Source: a virus
Taxonomy: Duplodnaviria; Heunggongvirae; Uroviricota; Caudoviricetes
Length of the DNA stretch: 64,000 nt
Virus record (IMG/VR): IMGVR_UViG_3300023371_000005
Reading direction: 5' to 3' (one strand)
The notes beneath the pieces were generated by a model. The model saw only the letters and a program-made list of their open reading frames with translations, was not told the origin of the DNA and searched no databases. A program made the translations under genes and the position numbers. Every line of letters starts with the position of its first letter. Position 1 is the first letter of the stretch. Positions 19,972 to 46,560 of this stretch are shown piece by piece.

Positions 19972-20516
19972 TCAAGGTTCATATCCAAGTTTTTTGAGTA
20001 AATCAATCAACTTGGTTTGCTCTTGTAAGAGCCGTTGTGTTTGCTCCCAAGAGATAAAGTAATCTCTCAGAGCATAATCAATTTCAGTCAGCCTTTTGAA
20101 AATTTCTAAAGCTGATTTTTCTTCGTGAGGTAGCACTGTCCACTTAGTCGTCAACAGTGCCACTCTACTTTCACGAGCCAGTAAATCTTGCGGCCATTTC
20201 GATACCGCACTGCATGGTCATCATACCAACCTTTATCCATCTTTGTAATGGCTTCGGCGGCATCTTCTCTGTTTTTATAAACAGGCTCTTTATGGAATTT
20301 TAGATTTCCATGATAACCAGAACTCTCTTGCGGATCATAAGCAAAACTATTGAGTTCTTTTAGAATTGCTTTTTCACTTGTTGAGCAGTGATAATCTCGG
20401 TATTGAATTGCGTGTCCCATGATCAACCTCCTAGCAGCGGATCTGCAAGGTAATCCTTGCAGCGCTTTCCATCTGCACTTGCGGAGCATTGGGGGTTGTG
20501 GCCGCAGGTGTCGCAT
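19972..20516 (-). CDS. hypothetical protein; two overlapping ORFs (19972..20163 and 20151..20516) may be joined by a frameshift
   Basis: Adjacent ORFs in different frames overlap by 13 nt. Confidence 0.25.
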
Positions 20517-21103
20517 TCATTTTTCTGCTCCTCCTGGAGGCCAAGCATTTCAATACAAATTTCGGTTTCTTTCTTCATCATTTCAATTGCATCATCTAGT
20601 AGAACCGGAGTGCAATTATTGGAGTCCATACCAACATGGAACATATAGGGCATACTCATATAGAACTTGTTTTGCTGATGAGTATGACCAAACAGATTGA
20701 TTAGGTGCATCCGCAGATACGGAGCCTTTTCCAGATTAGAAGTAATGGTAGGATGATGACTCAAATAGAAGTTATACTTCTTATACTTGATCATTTCAGC
20801 CAAACCGAGAACTTCAACACGAGGGAGCTTCTTATAAAGTACCAAACGAGTTGCGGTGTCATGATTACCGGGGATAATCTTAATATTACCATTTAGCTCT
20901 GCTAAACAGTCCATACCATAAGAATTATCACCGAGCATTACATCACCCAAATGGAATACGGTATCATCGGGACCAACAACCTCATTCCATCGTCTGATAA
21001 CTTCATTATCATGCTCCATGTAATTCGAGAAACCTCTTGGACCCCATAGAAACTCTCGGTCATGACCGAAATGAGTATCAGAAGTCACAAAAATCCTTCC
21101 CAT
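20423..21103 (-). CDS. calcineurin-like metallophosphoesterase (candidate 3'-phosphatase partner of Pnk)
   Basis: DTHFGHD...GDV...GNHD motifs. Confidence 0.7.
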   Translation of the reverse strand: MGRIFVTSDTHFGHDREFLWGPRGFSNYMEHDNEVIRRWNEVVGPDDTVFHLGDVMLGDNSYGMDCLAELNGNIKIIPGNHDTATRLVLYKKLPRVEVLGLAEMIKYKKYNFYLSHHPTITSNLEKAPYLRMHLINLFGHTHQQNKFYMSMPYMFHVGMDSNNCTPVLLDDAIEMMKKETEICIEMLGLQEEQKNECDTCGHNPQCSASADGKRCKDYLADPLLGG

Positions 21104-21629
21104 CGGTTTTCACTTCCTTTCTTTCTTCACCAAATTCATTAATATGGATAATCATATCATAACCCTCATACAGAGAAGGAGCAATGAAACGCTTATTCAT
21201 ATCACGAATTACAGTCATAGGAACGTCCGCGCGTCCGACGCGGTTCTTGTTTCTTTCGACCGCCACATCAGTAGGAATTTCAAAAGAAACACCAATTACT
21301 TCAGCAGCGTTCTTCAGATTGATATTGCGGAACAGCTCTCTTCGAGCTTTAGGTGTCAAGTGGGTGGCATCAACATAAACATCAGAATGGAAGTAGTCAG
21401 AACTCAACTTGTTGTTGATTTCCTTATAAAACTCCCGCAGAACCTGATCTTCGTGAGAGAAATAACTTTCATTCTCTTCAACCAGAGAAAGACGAATCAA
21501 ATCTCTGGAAATCCAGTTGCCACCGTGAATCGCAATCTGCTTCTGAATCCAGGAGCTCTTGCCGCATCCACTAGGACCGGACATGACAAATAGACGTTTC
21601 CGCTTCATCCTTATACACCCCATTCTCAA
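21078..21629 (-). CDS. pnk: polynucleotide 5'-kinase (T4 Pnk kinase-domain-like)
   Basis: GPSGCGKSSW...ISRD parallels T4 Pnk GCPGSGKSTW...INRD; downstream RR/VP motifs are conserved. Confidence 0.65.
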   Translation of the reverse strand: MRMGCIRMKRKRLFVMSGPSGCGKSSWIQKQIAIHGGNWISRDLIRLSLVEENESYFSHEDQVLREFYKEINNKLSSDYFHSDVYVDATHLTPKARRELFRNINLKNAAEVIGVSFEIPTDVAVERNKNRVGRADVPMTVIRDMNKRFIAPSLYEGYDMIIHINEFGEERKEVKTDGKDFCDF

Positions 21630-21828
21630 AATTATAACGAAATTCTTCTACATCTTCCATTGTCTTACATTCGACATGATTGATTTCCATACGACAGGTC
21701 GGACAGTAGAGCTTCTTGCGATGCATCCGTCCATGTTGATGACCTTTGAGGCGCATCAGAGGAATACCCTTGTTGCCACAGCTGATACAATAAAAGCTGT
21801 GTTCGTTATATGCTTTCTGCTTTGCCAT
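21571..21828 (-). CDS. small zinc-ribbon protein; ends at TAG 21571-21573, under code 15 it extends to TGA at about 21478
   Basis: CxxC...CxxC pairs. Confidence 0.4.
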   Translation of the reverse strand: MAKQKAYNEHSFYCISCGNKGIPLMRLKGHQHGRMHRKKLYCPTCRMEINHVECKTMEDVEEFRYNFENGVYKDEAETSICHVRS

Positions 21829-21858
21829 TTCATATTCCTTTCTTTACCTTACACATAT

Positions 21859-21887
21859 ATTATATCATATTTTTTTATAAAAATCAA
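21859..21887 (-). promoter_or_regulatory. promoter TTGATT-17-TATAAT (minus)
   Basis: Motif. Confidence 0.6.
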
Positions 21888-21898
21888 TTAAGATCTAT

Positions 21899-44526: not shown

Positions 44527-45250
44527 TACACTCCTAAATCTTGTAAAGTTAAAGTATCTCGTTTTTCATAAGGAATACGAATAAGTTTAATATTATGATT
44601 TTTACAGTATTCATTTTTTAACTTATCACGATACTATCTTTCTTCTAAAGTTTCGGAATTGTCCCATGGAGTATAATCGTTACTATGTTGACGTCCATCA
44701 AATTCTATTAAATGAGACAAGACATTATTACTATCAAAAATAGCAAAATCAAATCGTAGTCTTTTTTTATTTCTTAAATCTGAGAAGCTATATTCTTTAG
44801 CATAGTTAATATTATTTTCTCTTAATAATAATTCAATATTTTCTTCGCCAATAGAACGATTAGCACATCCACAACTTGTTGTATGTAATCTTGTTAGATT
44901 TGAGCCGAATATAGATACTATATTACCGCATTCACATTCACAAATCCACTTACTTTTCCATCCATTTTCTTCTGTGCTAATATAATTATTATCTGGACCT
45001 TTAACGGTAAGTTTTCCATAAACATTTCCCGTTAAATCATTTCTTTGAGCATGACATTTTCCACAACTCATATTTTGTCCAGATTTTATTCCACTATTTA
45101 GATTGCAGCTATTAACACTAGTCAAATTACCGCAAGAACAGCGACAAATCCAATAAATATTATGACCTTTTCCCCGAGGTTTTGTTTCATCTATATATAA
45201 TGGTTGTAGCTATCCTATTGTTTCAATAGAAAAATCTCTTGGTTTTCTTC
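44527..45250 (-). mobile_element. free-standing homing-endonuclease-like gene (paralog 2) with two in-frame TAGs (about 45212 and 44634-44636); TTG start
   Basis: Past TAG 44634 the frame continues into KLIRIPY, matching LIRIPY at the paralog-1 C-terminus. Upstream of TAG 45212 is another WICRCSCGN repeat and an MGRKPRD start, paralleling MGRKIDL in paralog 1. Confidence 0.55.
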
Positions 45251-45336
45251 CCAAATAATCAACTCCTTCTATAATAATTGAAAAAAGTCGGGGTTCAATT
45301 ATTATTCTTTGTCCATATTTTCATTTCTTTATATAT

Positions 45337-45365
45337 ATTATAACATATTTTTTTATAAAAATCAA
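45337..45365 (-). promoter_or_regulatory. promoter TTGATT-17-TATAAT (minus)
   Basis: Motif. Confidence 0.6.
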
Positions 45366-45368
45366 AAA

Positions 45369-45389
45369 AGGGAGCCTTGATGGCTCCCT
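45369..45389 (-). terminator. hairpin terminator
   Basis: Stem agggagcc-ttgat-ggctccct. Confidence 0.6.
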
Positions 45390-45679
45390 TAAATGTATCG
45401 TGGAGGAATAGGATCATCTGATCGCATTTCCTTTAGTTTCTGTGCGCTCGTGGGTTCTTGTTTTGCTCCTTTTGGCATAAAGAACGCATCAAAAATATCC
45501 GCATAGGTAGTTTTTTCTAATGCTTCTCGTGCGGCACGCGCTTCTCGTTTATCTTGGACATAGCAGGCAAGTGCCTGTTTGATAAGGCACTCGCCAGCTT
45601 CATCAGTTAGTTCACATTCATTACCCTTACAGACTGGCACATAACCATGCTGACTGCAACATAGGGGACAATAACTCAT
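45389..45679 (-). CDS. Cys-rich hypothetical protein
   Basis: ORF. Confidence 0.3.
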   Translation of the reverse strand: MSYCPLCCSQHGYVPVCKGNECELTDEAGECLIKQALACYVQDKREARAAREALEKTTYADIFDAFFMPKGAKQEPTSAQKLKEMRSDDPIPPRYI

Positions 45680-46560
45680 GCCTTAAATCCTCCTAAGGTT
45701 TCACTGTCATAGGTAAGTTCTGGTTCAAGGAAACCGAGTTCGTATTTTACTGCGGTTTCCATGATACCATAGCTTACAGATTCAAGCAGTTGTCTCATGC
45801 TTTCATCTTCTACTTCTGGTGTGCGAGCACAGAAATCCTCGGCCATCTTATCCATATGAGCAAGAGTAACCTTAGCTTCTTCGCGAGCAATTTCCAGAGG
45901 GATTACATCCAACATTTTGTAATCCATGATATGAGGAACTCTTGCTGGAGTTGGCTTCAAGCAATCTTCATAGCTCTCACCGGCGATGTATCGCTCAAGG
46001 TAGTCATCAACTCTCTCCAAGTGAGAGTTCTGCTTACCATCGTAGCCATACTTTTCAATGATTTCCAGTTTGGAGGGGTAAGGCTTTTCCATTGCCGCAT
46101 ACTTTTCATGGGCGATGCCCTTCATAGATTTGACCGCACGGAAGGGGTTCATGCGGGCGATTTCCTCTCGATGCTCCACTAAGCGCATCCATTCATCCCG
46201 ATACATAGGGTTGATGATGTAGTAAGGAGTAAAAAGGATTTCAAGGAAGTTCAAATTCTGCTTCCGGAAAGTTTCCATATACAGACGAATGTCCTTCCAG
46301 TCAGTATGCTCGTTGTTTTCACGAACATGAGTAGTAGATATTGGCTTGCGGTTCAAGCAAATATCTGCGAATTTTGGTACGATAATCAATTTAGTGTCAA
46401 CGTCAGAACCTTCATAATCCAGTCCATAGTTTTGACTACCCTGTAAGAAGCAGCCTACAATCTGGTATTCAGGAAAATACTGTAAGGCTTCTTCGTAATG
46501 ATCTCGTACCCTCTTCATCACGAGAGCATCGTGTAGCTCTTTGGGGCTAACTACAGTCAA
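45676..46560 (-). CDS. Pol-beta-superfamily nucleotidyltransferase
   Basis: GSQNYGLDYEGSDVD matches the GS...SDxD nucleotidyltransferase motif. Confidence 0.5.
   Translation of the reverse strand: MTVVSPKELHDALVMKRVRDHYEEALQYFPEYQIVGCFLQGSQNYGLDYEGSDVDTKLIIVPKFADICLNRKPISTTHVRENNEHTDWKDIRLYMETFRKQNLNFLEILFTPYYIINPMYRDEWMRLVEHREEIARMNPFRAVKSMKGIAHEKYAAMEKPYPSKLEIIEKYGYDGKQNSHLERVDDYLERYIAGESYEDCLKPTPARVPHIMDYKMLDVIPLEIAREEAKVTLAHMDKMAEDFCARTPEVEDESMRQLLESVSYGIMETAVKYELGFLEPELTYDSETLGGFKA

Follow-up and report, generated by a model that had tools for sequence, protein, structure and literature searches.

We analyzed a 64,000-nt stretch of the Caudoviricetes record IMGVR_UViG_3300023371_000005 from IMG/VR (referred to here as the window), which carries genes for a polynucleotide kinase, an RNA ligase, a Thg1-like protein (TLP), a Pol-beta-type nucleotidyltransferase (NTase), and several metallophosphoesterases (MPEs). 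An initial annotation had described these genes as a dispersed RNA repair toolkit. The individual calls hold, and the interval was confirmed as a real set of RNA-end repair enzymes distributed over ~27 kb; all of the named repair genes are intact minus-strand open reading frames (ORFs) with family support, and none contains an in-frame TAG. The three MPEs counted in addition to the kinase-linked one are also real, and the set thus contains four (20423-21103, 21899-22627, 42319-43065, and 43668-44522). Three likely members had been overlooked, namely, a cyclic-phosphate-processing receiver (cRec) protein, a DEDD exonuclease, and an alarmone-hydrolase-like HD protein. The genes are arranged in six units, as follows.

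Unit 1, transcribed in the order zinc-ribbon ORF, kinase, phosphoesterase
21859-21887, minus strand: copy of a predicted promoter (TTGATT-N17-TGnTATAAT) preceding this unit
21571-21828, minus strand: zinc-ribbon ORF (85 amino acids [aa]; CxxC...CxxC; phrog_1257, 7e-9), overlapping the kinase start
21078-21629, minus strand: predicted standalone Pnk-type 5'-OH polynucleotide kinase, called from profile and structure-sequence matches
20423-21103, minus strand: MPE of the phrog_547/Aquifex aq_1665 type (Metallophos_2, 1e-8; phrog_547, 2e-45)
Unit 2, lambda-phosphatase-like enzyme
21899-22627, minus strand: lambda-phosphatase/ApaH-like MPE with its own promoter copy (22828-22856)
Unit 3, transcribed in the order exonuclease, ligase, HD_4 protein
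36502-37413, minus strand: DEDD (RNase T/DnaQ-like) 3'-5' exonuclease (RNase_T, 6.5e-14), first gene of the ligase unit
34751-36214, minus strand: predicted Rnl5-like ATP-dependent RNA ligase with N-terminal OB and adenylyltransferase domains, called from profiles and motifs
33801-34457, minus strand: HD_4 (RelA/SpoT-hydrolase-type) protein, small-alarmone-hydrolase-like (218 aa), in the ligase unit
Unit 4, transcribed in the order phosphoesterase, HNH-like ORF, TLP
42319-43065, minus strand: second phrog_547-type MPE (phrog_547, 1.5e-21), in the TLP unit
41480-42217, minus strand: low-GC (0.32) ORF with similarity to the HNH/homing-endonuclease family (phrog_374, 4.7e-37), between the phosphoesterase and the TLP and outside the repair chemistry
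40684-41466, minus strand: TLP, predicted 3'-5' nucleotidyltransferase
Unit 5, transcribed in the order HNH-like ORF, phosphoesterase
44634-45125, minus strand: second low-GC (0.30) HNH-family-like ORF (phrog_559, 1e-20), between RlaP and its usual phosphoesterase partner
43668-44522, minus strand: MPE of the phrog_1649 type (Metallophos, 1.2e-10; phrog_1649, 2.9e-20)
Unit 6, transcribed in the order cRec, RlaP
47601-47918, minus strand: cRec domain protein (Pfam cREC_REC [PF20274], 8.5e-19), in the unit of RlaP
45676-46560, minus strand: RlaP-like Pol-beta NTase (TTG start with a strong ribosome-binding site; GS...DVD motif)

The product of 21078-21629 is a predicted Pnk-type kinase that would phosphorylate 5'-OH ends. 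It matched Pfam AAA_33 (2.5e-15) and the PHROG family "polynucleotide kinase" (5e-18), and the kinase part of NCBIfam TIGR04075 (bacter_Pnkp) aligned with positions 5-136 only (2.9e-9; score, 35.7 versus a cutoff of 750). The best PDB matches were the kinase domain of Clostridium thermocellum Pnkp (4gp6, 8.4e-5) and T4 Pnk (1ly1, 2.4e-4); the GPSGCGKS P-loop, the SRDLIR motif (Asp/Arg), and the ERNKNRVGR lid align with the former. The score against PSTK was similar (5.3e-9), so that the specificity for polynucleotide kinases is not absolute. The true start is probably the ATG at 21608, which gives a 176-aa product as found in metagenomes. All 81 kinase homologues found were standalone proteins (120 to 180 aa; ~165 aa) with kinase-type domains only; fusions to a phosphoesterase, sought among these 81 as a test of a split Pnkp, were absent. 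In relatives, a 90- to 93-aa ORF stands at the position of the zinc-ribbon ORF, position alone having been compared. A nicotinamide-riboside kinase was considered as an identity for 21078-21629, prompted by the nearby cluster of genes for nicotinamide adenine dinucleotide (NAD+) metabolism described below, and was judged unlikely given that the specific matches are to polynucleotide kinases. The P-loop family that we take to be that of the NadR-type riboside kinases was not among the listed Pfam and NCBIfam matches.

The kinase gene is flanked by phosphoesterase genes. The downstream MPE (20423-21103) contains every metallophosphoesterase motif, overlaps the kinase stop by 26 nt, and has its own ribosome-binding site; it is probably translationally coupled to the kinase and is a candidate 3'-end healing enzyme. 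This kinase-then-MPE adjacency is retained in relatives at 40 to 43% kinase identity. The upstream MPE (21899-22627), a neighbor of the kinase in a separate unit, also adjoins the kinase unit in relatives. It matched Metallophos (1.6e-10), phrog_246 (1e-36), lambda phosphatase (1g5b, 1.4e-7), and ApaH (NF001204, 5e-14), with a weak match to the phosphatase segment of Pnkp (9e-4), and from these similarities is predicted to be of the phosphoesterase type found in bacterial Pnkp. The initial annotation had likened the kinase and its downstream neighbor to a split bacterial Pnkp. The kinase indeed matches the Pnkp kinase domain; the named partner belongs to a very widespread family usually found without a kinase, and the MPE of the putative Pnkp type is the upstream one. 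By sequence, any of the MPEs could be the enzyme that heals RNA ends.

Profile searches supported both the ligase assignment, which had been regarded as the weakest, and the Thg1 assignment. The ligase matched the PHROG family "RNA ligase" (phrog_968, 1.3e-59) and TIGR02306 (DRB0094; 4e-15, residues 9-203), and residues 9-104 matched the OB domain PF21189 at just under its cutoff (1.5e-5). The ligase family profile matched only the Naegleria RNA ligase (NgrRnl residues 8-176, i.e., the OB domain through motif I; 3e-6). The motifs K190-L-H-G-T-S, E287, E438-G439, and K454/K456 were invariant in 13 sequences, down to 31% identity. An AlphaFold2 model built with 25 close homologues had a mean predicted local distance difference test (pLDDT) score of 50 and was unfit for fold search; thus, the family call rests on sequence profiles. 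These profiles point to the nick-sealing Rnl5 type (DraRnl/NgrRnl) rather than the Rnl1 anticodon-loop type. The protein shares with the Rnl5 ligases of Deinococcus (DraRnl/DRB0094) and Naegleria (NgrRnl) an OB domain at the N terminus, an adenylyltransferase domain after it, and motifs I, III, IV, and V; it exceeds them in length by ~150 residues, having an acidic tail and additional segments inserted into the NTase domain. The ligase unit is bounded by a promoter copy (37453-37481) and a terminator (33599-33623), and its exonuclease-then-ligase order recurs in relatives. The HD_4 protein of this unit scored 35.8 bits against HD_4 (8e-9; Pfam cutoff, 27.2) and matched TIGR00691 (3.7e-15), with the match covering only the N-terminal third of the profile.

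The TLP scored 103.7 bits against Pfam Thg1 (9e-30; cutoff, 29.2). Among PDB entries, it matched the Bacillus thuringiensis TLP (4kgk, 2e-52) far better than human, yeast, and Candida Thg1 (~2e-4), which places it by sequence in the bacterial TLP clade and not with the eukaryotic tRNA-His-specific Thg1. The similarity to 4kgk is full length, and the catalytic carboxylates are conserved: D34, D79, and E80, invariant across five phage TLPs, align with RIDG and SDE of the B. thuringiensis protein. The window TLP differs in having a ~30-residue insertion (124-154), in being phage encoded, and in being cotranscribed with an MPE. Its unit extends from a promoter copy at 43362-43390 to a terminator at 39008-39036. 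The MPE of this unit (42319-43065) is paralogous to the kinase-linked MPE 20423-21103 (1e-5), and its type lies directly upstream of the TLP in three related contigs (L024, L079, and L083). The TLP is immediately followed, within its unit, by two adjacent ORFs of similar size (39908-40294 and 40295-40687, minus strand; 128 and 130 aa) that had no Pfam or PHROG matches; both were present in all of the close relatives seen. TLP genes were annotated in 163 of 50,697 phage records, and a scan of IMG/VR with a TLP alignment identified at least 554 viral contigs encoding one; the initial description of Thg1-like proteins as rare in phages was therefore overstated. A literature search found no experimental study of a phage TLP.

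The NTase matched phrog_388 (1.5e-17), and 42 of 63 diverse members of its family matched RlaP (best, 2.1e-8). Homologues in Lysinibacillus phage LC76P1 (30% identity, 1e-28) and Gordonia phage DatBoi (gp95, 31% identity) scored 28.3 and 82.9 bits, respectively, against RlaP. Residues G41-S42, D53, and D55 are invariant and D90 is nearly so. An AlphaFold2 model (pLDDT, 89.5) comprises an NTase sheet followed by a helical domain and resembles phage NTases with template modeling (TM) scores of 0.65 to 0.70. Neither the sequence nor the 63-member profile matched a solved structure, and Foldseek retrieved only generic Pol-beta NTases (TM score, ~0.4) from a PDB copy that did not include the published RlaP structure. 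Together, these comparisons indicate a divergent RlaP (RNA-ligase-associated Pol-beta) enzyme. The best homologue in the cultured-phage collection was in phage phAss-1 (OQ749652.1, L015; 114908-115732; 31% identity, 91% coverage), a human-gut phage of the "code 15" (TAG-recoded) clade, where it lies at the edge of a tRNA array. RlaP and the ligase are 9.5 kb apart in the window and adjacent or within ~3 kb in LC76P1, DatBoi, L079, and L077. The cRec protein encoded in the RlaP unit (promoter copy, 48503-48531; terminator, 45368-45390) scored 68.5 bits against PF20274 (cutoff, 27), and cRec genes are also near RlaP or the ligase in relatives. The phrog_1649-type MPE gene directly follows RlaP in four related contigs (L079, L091, L077, and L036).

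The predicted promoter was recognized as a 29-nt sequence, TTGATTTTTATAAAAAAATATGATATAAT, with a -35-like hexamer, a 17-nt spacer, and an extended -10 element. The window contains 17 minus-strand copies (0.12 expected), located at positions 277, 2698, 13874, 21859, 22828, 24156, 25605, 29750, 32836, 33570, 37453, 38979, 43362, 45337, 48503, 51116, and 56350. Of these, 13 are within 21.8 to 51.1 kb, and most copies stand just after a strong hairpin terminator. On the basis of its consensus, we predict that the sequence is a promoter, and the repair genes in the six units are probably coregulated by it. In two related contigs, the match to the window ends precisely where a promoter copy has its outer edge (51144 and 45365), and the promoter-like repeats may be recombination points for the swapping of gene cassettes.

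Homologues of the repair genes are grouped in other phages. In LC76P1, the ligase, RlaP, and a kinase fused to an HD phosphohydrolase are contiguous, while in Bacillus phage vB_BcoS-136, the ligase is directly followed by a kinase-HD fusion. DatBoi has RlaP, a ligase, and a T4-type Pnkp within ~7 kb, and Streptomyces phage StarPlatinum carries an RNA ligase and Pnk among its tRNA genes. To quantify the grouping, we took the best 80 TLP loci (TLP identity, 54 to 74%) of the at least 554 IMG/VR contigs and counted the genes up to 10 kb away from the TLP. RlaP was found at 22 loci, the MPE types at 16 to 19, the kinase at 14, the ligase at 13, cRec at 12, and the DEDD exonuclease at 10, compared with 7 for NAMPT, 6 for SPFH, and 3 for the sigma factor as control genes from the window. 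The repair genes were thus 2 to 7 times more common near the TLP than the controls, and their grouping is beyond chance. The HD_4 gene, found near the TLP at just 1 of the 80 loci, is only weakly linked to the set.

Two contigs (L079 and L091) contained a compact co-oriented island of 11.3 kb in the order cRec-RlaP-MPE-ligase-MPE-MPE-TLP-kinase, and in L052, L077, and L024 the repair genes were reordered yet clustered. All of the components, including all four MPE types, occurred in such islands of diverged uncultured phages. Several associations recurred. The 43668-type phosphoesterase came after RlaP, the TLP after the 42319-type phosphoesterase, and the ligase after the DEDD exonuclease; the lambda-phosphatase-like enzyme, the kinase, and the 20423-type phosphoesterase also formed a group. 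Given these compact islands in relatives, we regard the spread layout of the window as the same island with the NAD+ salvage cluster, a sigma factor gene, and the two low-GC HNH-like ORFs spacing its genes apart. Clustering that is kept through rearrangement at 32 to 57% protein identity argues for a functional link. The joint role in RNA repair that had been proposed is therefore supported by the LC76P1 cassette, the vB_BcoS-136 pair, and the islands of uncultured phages.

The window is coded almost wholly on the minus strand, with standard-code ORFs of at least 100 aa covering 55.5 of 64 kb. A megablast search with 24 kb of the window yielded no match in the 50,697 phage records, and the phage appears to have no close cultured relative. 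Exact copies of its proteins recur on many metagenomic contigs of up to 0.2 to 1 Mb (including contigs of 183, 203, 206, and 220 kb); the window is therefore assigned to a large, uncultured phage, which is of a gut type. The sigma-70 factor, a DUF5067 protein, a SleB-like hydrolase domain, and best matches in Bacillus-group phages suggest a Firmicutes host.

No tRNA or other known RNA was detected in the window by ARAGORN and Rfam. A sister contig (L016; ERZ27248436 k141_1895590) is 100% identical to window positions 8404-51144 (~42.7 kb), and its first 9,926 nt, upstream of the vault-like gene described below and the repair block, contain 18 tRNA genes, including tRNA-His and an amber suppressor-type tRNA(CUA) 12 nt from the 51144 junction. 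Upstream of 51144, the window is unrelated to the sister contig; therefore, two genome arrangements exist. TAG, the rarest stop in the window, is all that splits the same-frame ORFs at 51200-55405, 14541-16280, and 57062-58276. The first of these contains three in-frame TAGs, and identical DNA elsewhere is annotated as a single 1,393-aa protein with Flg_new domains. These split ORFs fit TAG suppression or recoding in some genes. The dependence on a suppressor tRNA that the initial annotation assumed is therefore plausible from the in-frame TAGs and the tRNA(CUA) of the sister contig, although the window itself has no tRNA gene and the repair interval contributes nothing to the case. A further contig (L018), which shares the window sequence upstream of the vault-like gene (roughly 58 to 60 kb in the window), carries a short called gene (1862-2044) with a weak reverse-transcriptase (RVT_1) match, located a few kilobases away from the Flg_new-domain gene that contains the TAGs; a diversity-generating retroelement is a possible explanation.

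Several other genes are interspersed with the repair units, all on the minus strand. A cluster at 24430-32810 encodes NAD+ salvage and ADP-ribose-processing proteins (an NMNAT-like cytidylyltransferase, NADAR, NAD synthase, a Macro-like phosphatase, NAMPT, SIR2, YqeY, a Prs-like phosphoribosyltransferase, and a PncA-like isochorismatase) and looks like a phage NAD+ reconstitution pathway directed against NAD-depleting defenses. A full-length sigma-70 family factor (38035-38940; regions 1.2, 2, 3, and 4) with its own promoter copy is located between the TLP and ligase units. Two SPFH/Band 7 (prohibitin-like) proteins (18404-19936 and 22898-23842) flank the kinase unit; an SPFH gene is near the kinase or the TLP in several related contigs as well, and the annotation of Fusobacterium phage FNU3 places a "prohibitin" close to its TLP. 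The gene at 48569-51070, which lies immediately upstream of the cRec-RlaP unit, encodes an 833-aa protein that matched the shoulder (8.4e-22) and repeat (1.5e-8) domains of the major vault protein and matched no PHROG family.

We consider it probable that this phage RNA-end repair repertoire, organized in six short units with one promoter type, serves most likely to keep tRNAs usable under damage by host defenses. The gene identities, catalytic motifs, common promoter, and recurrent clustering were observed; the substrates, the order of steps, and the roles of the phosphoesterases we infer from family biochemistry, as follows. Breaks made by metal-independent RNases would leave 2',3'-cyclic phosphate and 5'-OH ends. 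The 3' phosphate would be opened and removed by the cRec protein, an MPE, or both (the phosphodiesterase activity of cRec is itself a prediction [PMC7824862]), and the Pnk-type kinase would phosphorylate the 5'-OH. One or two nucleotides lost at the 3'-OH end could be restored by the RlaP enzyme; in published work (PMC12776372), RlaP extends damaged 3' ends of RNA by 1 to 2 nucleotides, and over-damaged tRNA requires it to regain aminoacylation. The nick in the folded, base-paired tRNA would then be sealed by the Rnl5-like ligase. Separately, the TLP would use templated 3'-5' addition to replace nucleotides lost from tRNA 5' ends, and the 5' phosphate that it needs could come from the kinase. 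The HD_4 protein may strip the 3' pyrophosphate installed on tRNAs by toxSAS, a modification known to be removed by a phage alarmone hydrolase (PMC11559606), or may degrade alarmones. PrrC, RloC, PARIS, and retron systems as the specific targets are conjecture; the retron-Eco7 paper, checked for a 5'-end cleavage site that a TLP could mend, reports only depletion of tRNA-Tyr.

A number of observations weigh against this interpretation. To our knowledge, the characterized Rnl5 enzymes seal duplex nicks, and sealing of an anticodon-loop break is unproven for this type. The ligase is also below the curated cutoffs (TIGR02306, 55.5 versus 151 bits; PF09414, 19.8 versus 27) and is thus a divergent relative of Rnl5 rather than a curated member, and the NTase itself falls short of the Pfam RlaP cutoff (PF10127, 1.6e-3; 18.6 versus 23 bits). 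The phrog_547 family of the kinase-linked MPE is present in 1,397 phage records, versus 35 matching this kinase, and usually occurs without a kinase. Coregulation is not specific to repair because the NAD+ genes between the units use the identical promoter. At about half of the 80 TLP loci, no other repair gene lies within 10 kb of the TLP, and much of the clustering could be synteny inherited within one broad phage group. In the four cultured-phage neighborhoods inspected, no ligase or Pnk was annotated near the TLP; annotation there (PK-3, Vibrio 1.170.O, Aeromonas 2L372D, and Fusobacterium FNU3) revealed no conserved repair partner, and the linkage of the TLP to repair genes appeared only in the IMG/VR loci. 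The repair roles assigned to the window proteins derive, moreover, from the biochemistry of their families.

A more elaborate version of the repair reading is possible, and we advance it only tentatively: a full tRNA end-maintenance system in which the TLP would act at 5' ends; RlaP, the DEDD exonuclease, and the HD_4 protein at 3' ends; and cRec, the MPEs, the kinase, and the ligase at internal breaks. Such a system would mainly protect phage tRNAs, including the amber suppressor, with the TLP as a counterdefense against acceptor-end tRNases and with Pnkp in a split form. If true, this would give the TLP a role never shown for any TLP, and the standalone kinase with its flanking MPEs would be a new split form of Pnkp.

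The enzymes might instead serve maturation and quality control of the phage's own tRNA pool and not chiefly counter host nucleases, with the TLP restoring G-1 of tRNA-His or repairing 5' ends, RlaP and the exonuclease trimming and rebuilding 3' ends, and phage tRNAs (including the amber suppressor for TAG-containing genes) being kept functional. The 18 tRNA genes with tRNA(CUA) and tRNA-His directly upstream of the block in the sister contig favor this explanation, as do the in-frame TAGs in window genes and the RlaP homologue beside the tRNA array of the TAG-recoded gut phage phAss-1. The tRNA-His gene of the sister contig, however, already encodes G-1 opposite C73, so that an added G-1 is not required, and we rejected a need for the TLP in this step. 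Ordinary bacterial tRNA maturation requires no kinase, phosphoesterases, or ligase, and a tRNA gene was found within 10 kb at only 13 of the 80 TLP loci. Overall, we judge this explanation unlikely.

Finally, the toolkit might be only an annotation pattern in an early-gene, counterdefense region of functionally unrelated neighbors. The phosphoesterases, kinase, and NTase would then act on nucleotide second messengers, diadenosine tetraphosphate (Ap4A), NAD/ADP-ribose products, or proteins, and the ligase and exonuclease would act on nucleic-acid ends in replication or repair. The interval does contain the NAD+ salvage cluster, Macro, NADAR, SIR2, and SPFH genes under the identical promoter; the highest scores of MPE 21899-22627 are to ApaH and Ser/Thr phosphatases; some AAA_33 kinases act on small molecules; and the closest solved folds of the NTase, at low TM scores, are antibiotic NTases and Hailong HalB. 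We nevertheless hold this to be slightly less likely still, given that the specific kinase matches are polynucleotide kinases, that the NTase family matches RlaP and adjoins this ligase type in other phages, and that rearrangements have left the repair genes together but not the control genes nearby.

The repair repertoire described for jumbo phages (Iyer, Anantharaman, Krishnan, Burroughs, and Aravind 2021, PMC7824862) is the closest counterpart of the window set. It likewise comprises ATP-dependent RNA ligases, polynucleotide kinases, phosphoesterases, cRec, RlaP (which mirrors the ligases), and sporadic Thg1, and it occurs in the neighborhood of phage tRNAs and of genes for NAD+ salvage, Macro, NADAR, and SIR2; calcineurin-like phosphoesterases are there in a minority. 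The window differs in that its genome, that of an uncultured phage (contigs of ~200 kb), contains in-frame TAG codons, in having four MPEs, in its six units over ~27 kb, and in its standalone kinase, which lacks a fused HAD or HD phosphatase. As in the repair of PrrC-cleaved tRNA-Lys by T4 Pnkp and Rnl1, healing (5' kinase and 3' phosphatase) would precede sealing, and the kinase domains are homologous; the window set, however, has no HAD (DxDxT) phosphatase domain, its ligase is Rnl5-like and not Rnl1, and RlaP, the TLP, and cRec are added. Bacterial Pnkp/Hen1 (in C. thermocellum, kinase, metallophosphoesterase, and ligase in one protein) is matched by the kinase, and the lambda-phosphatase-type MPE, with its weak match to the Pnkp phosphatase segment, lies next door in its own unit; the window genes are separate and the ligase is not of the Pnkp (Rnl4) type. 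No Hen1 methyltransferase was found among the ~50 ORFs scanned in 18 to 51 kb, which did not take in every small ORF there. Finally, the LC76P1 and vB_BcoS-136 cassettes resemble the window in their ligase (41 to 46% identity), RlaP (30%), and kinase domain (27%), but their genes are contiguous with a kinase-HD fusion, while those in the window are 9 to 25 kb apart with the kinase paired with MPEs.

The window set is therefore a new example of a system whose concept and parts list have already been published (PMC7824862), and for this reason the current picture is unchanged. Its points of interest are the standalone kinase bracketed by MPEs, the four conserved phosphoesterase types in the island, the Rnl5-type ligase, and the TLP tied to repair genes by its neighborhood. 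Defenses that cleave or modify tRNAs (PrrC, RloC, PARIS, retron effectors, toxSAS, and Schlafen-like nucleases) are now known to be common, and among phages, the countermeasures characterized to date are T4 Pnkp/Rnl1 and the carriage of spare tRNAs. This locus and the compact islands provide a concrete, testable gene set that combines an Rnl5-type ligase, RlaP, and a Thg1-like 3'-5' polymerase.

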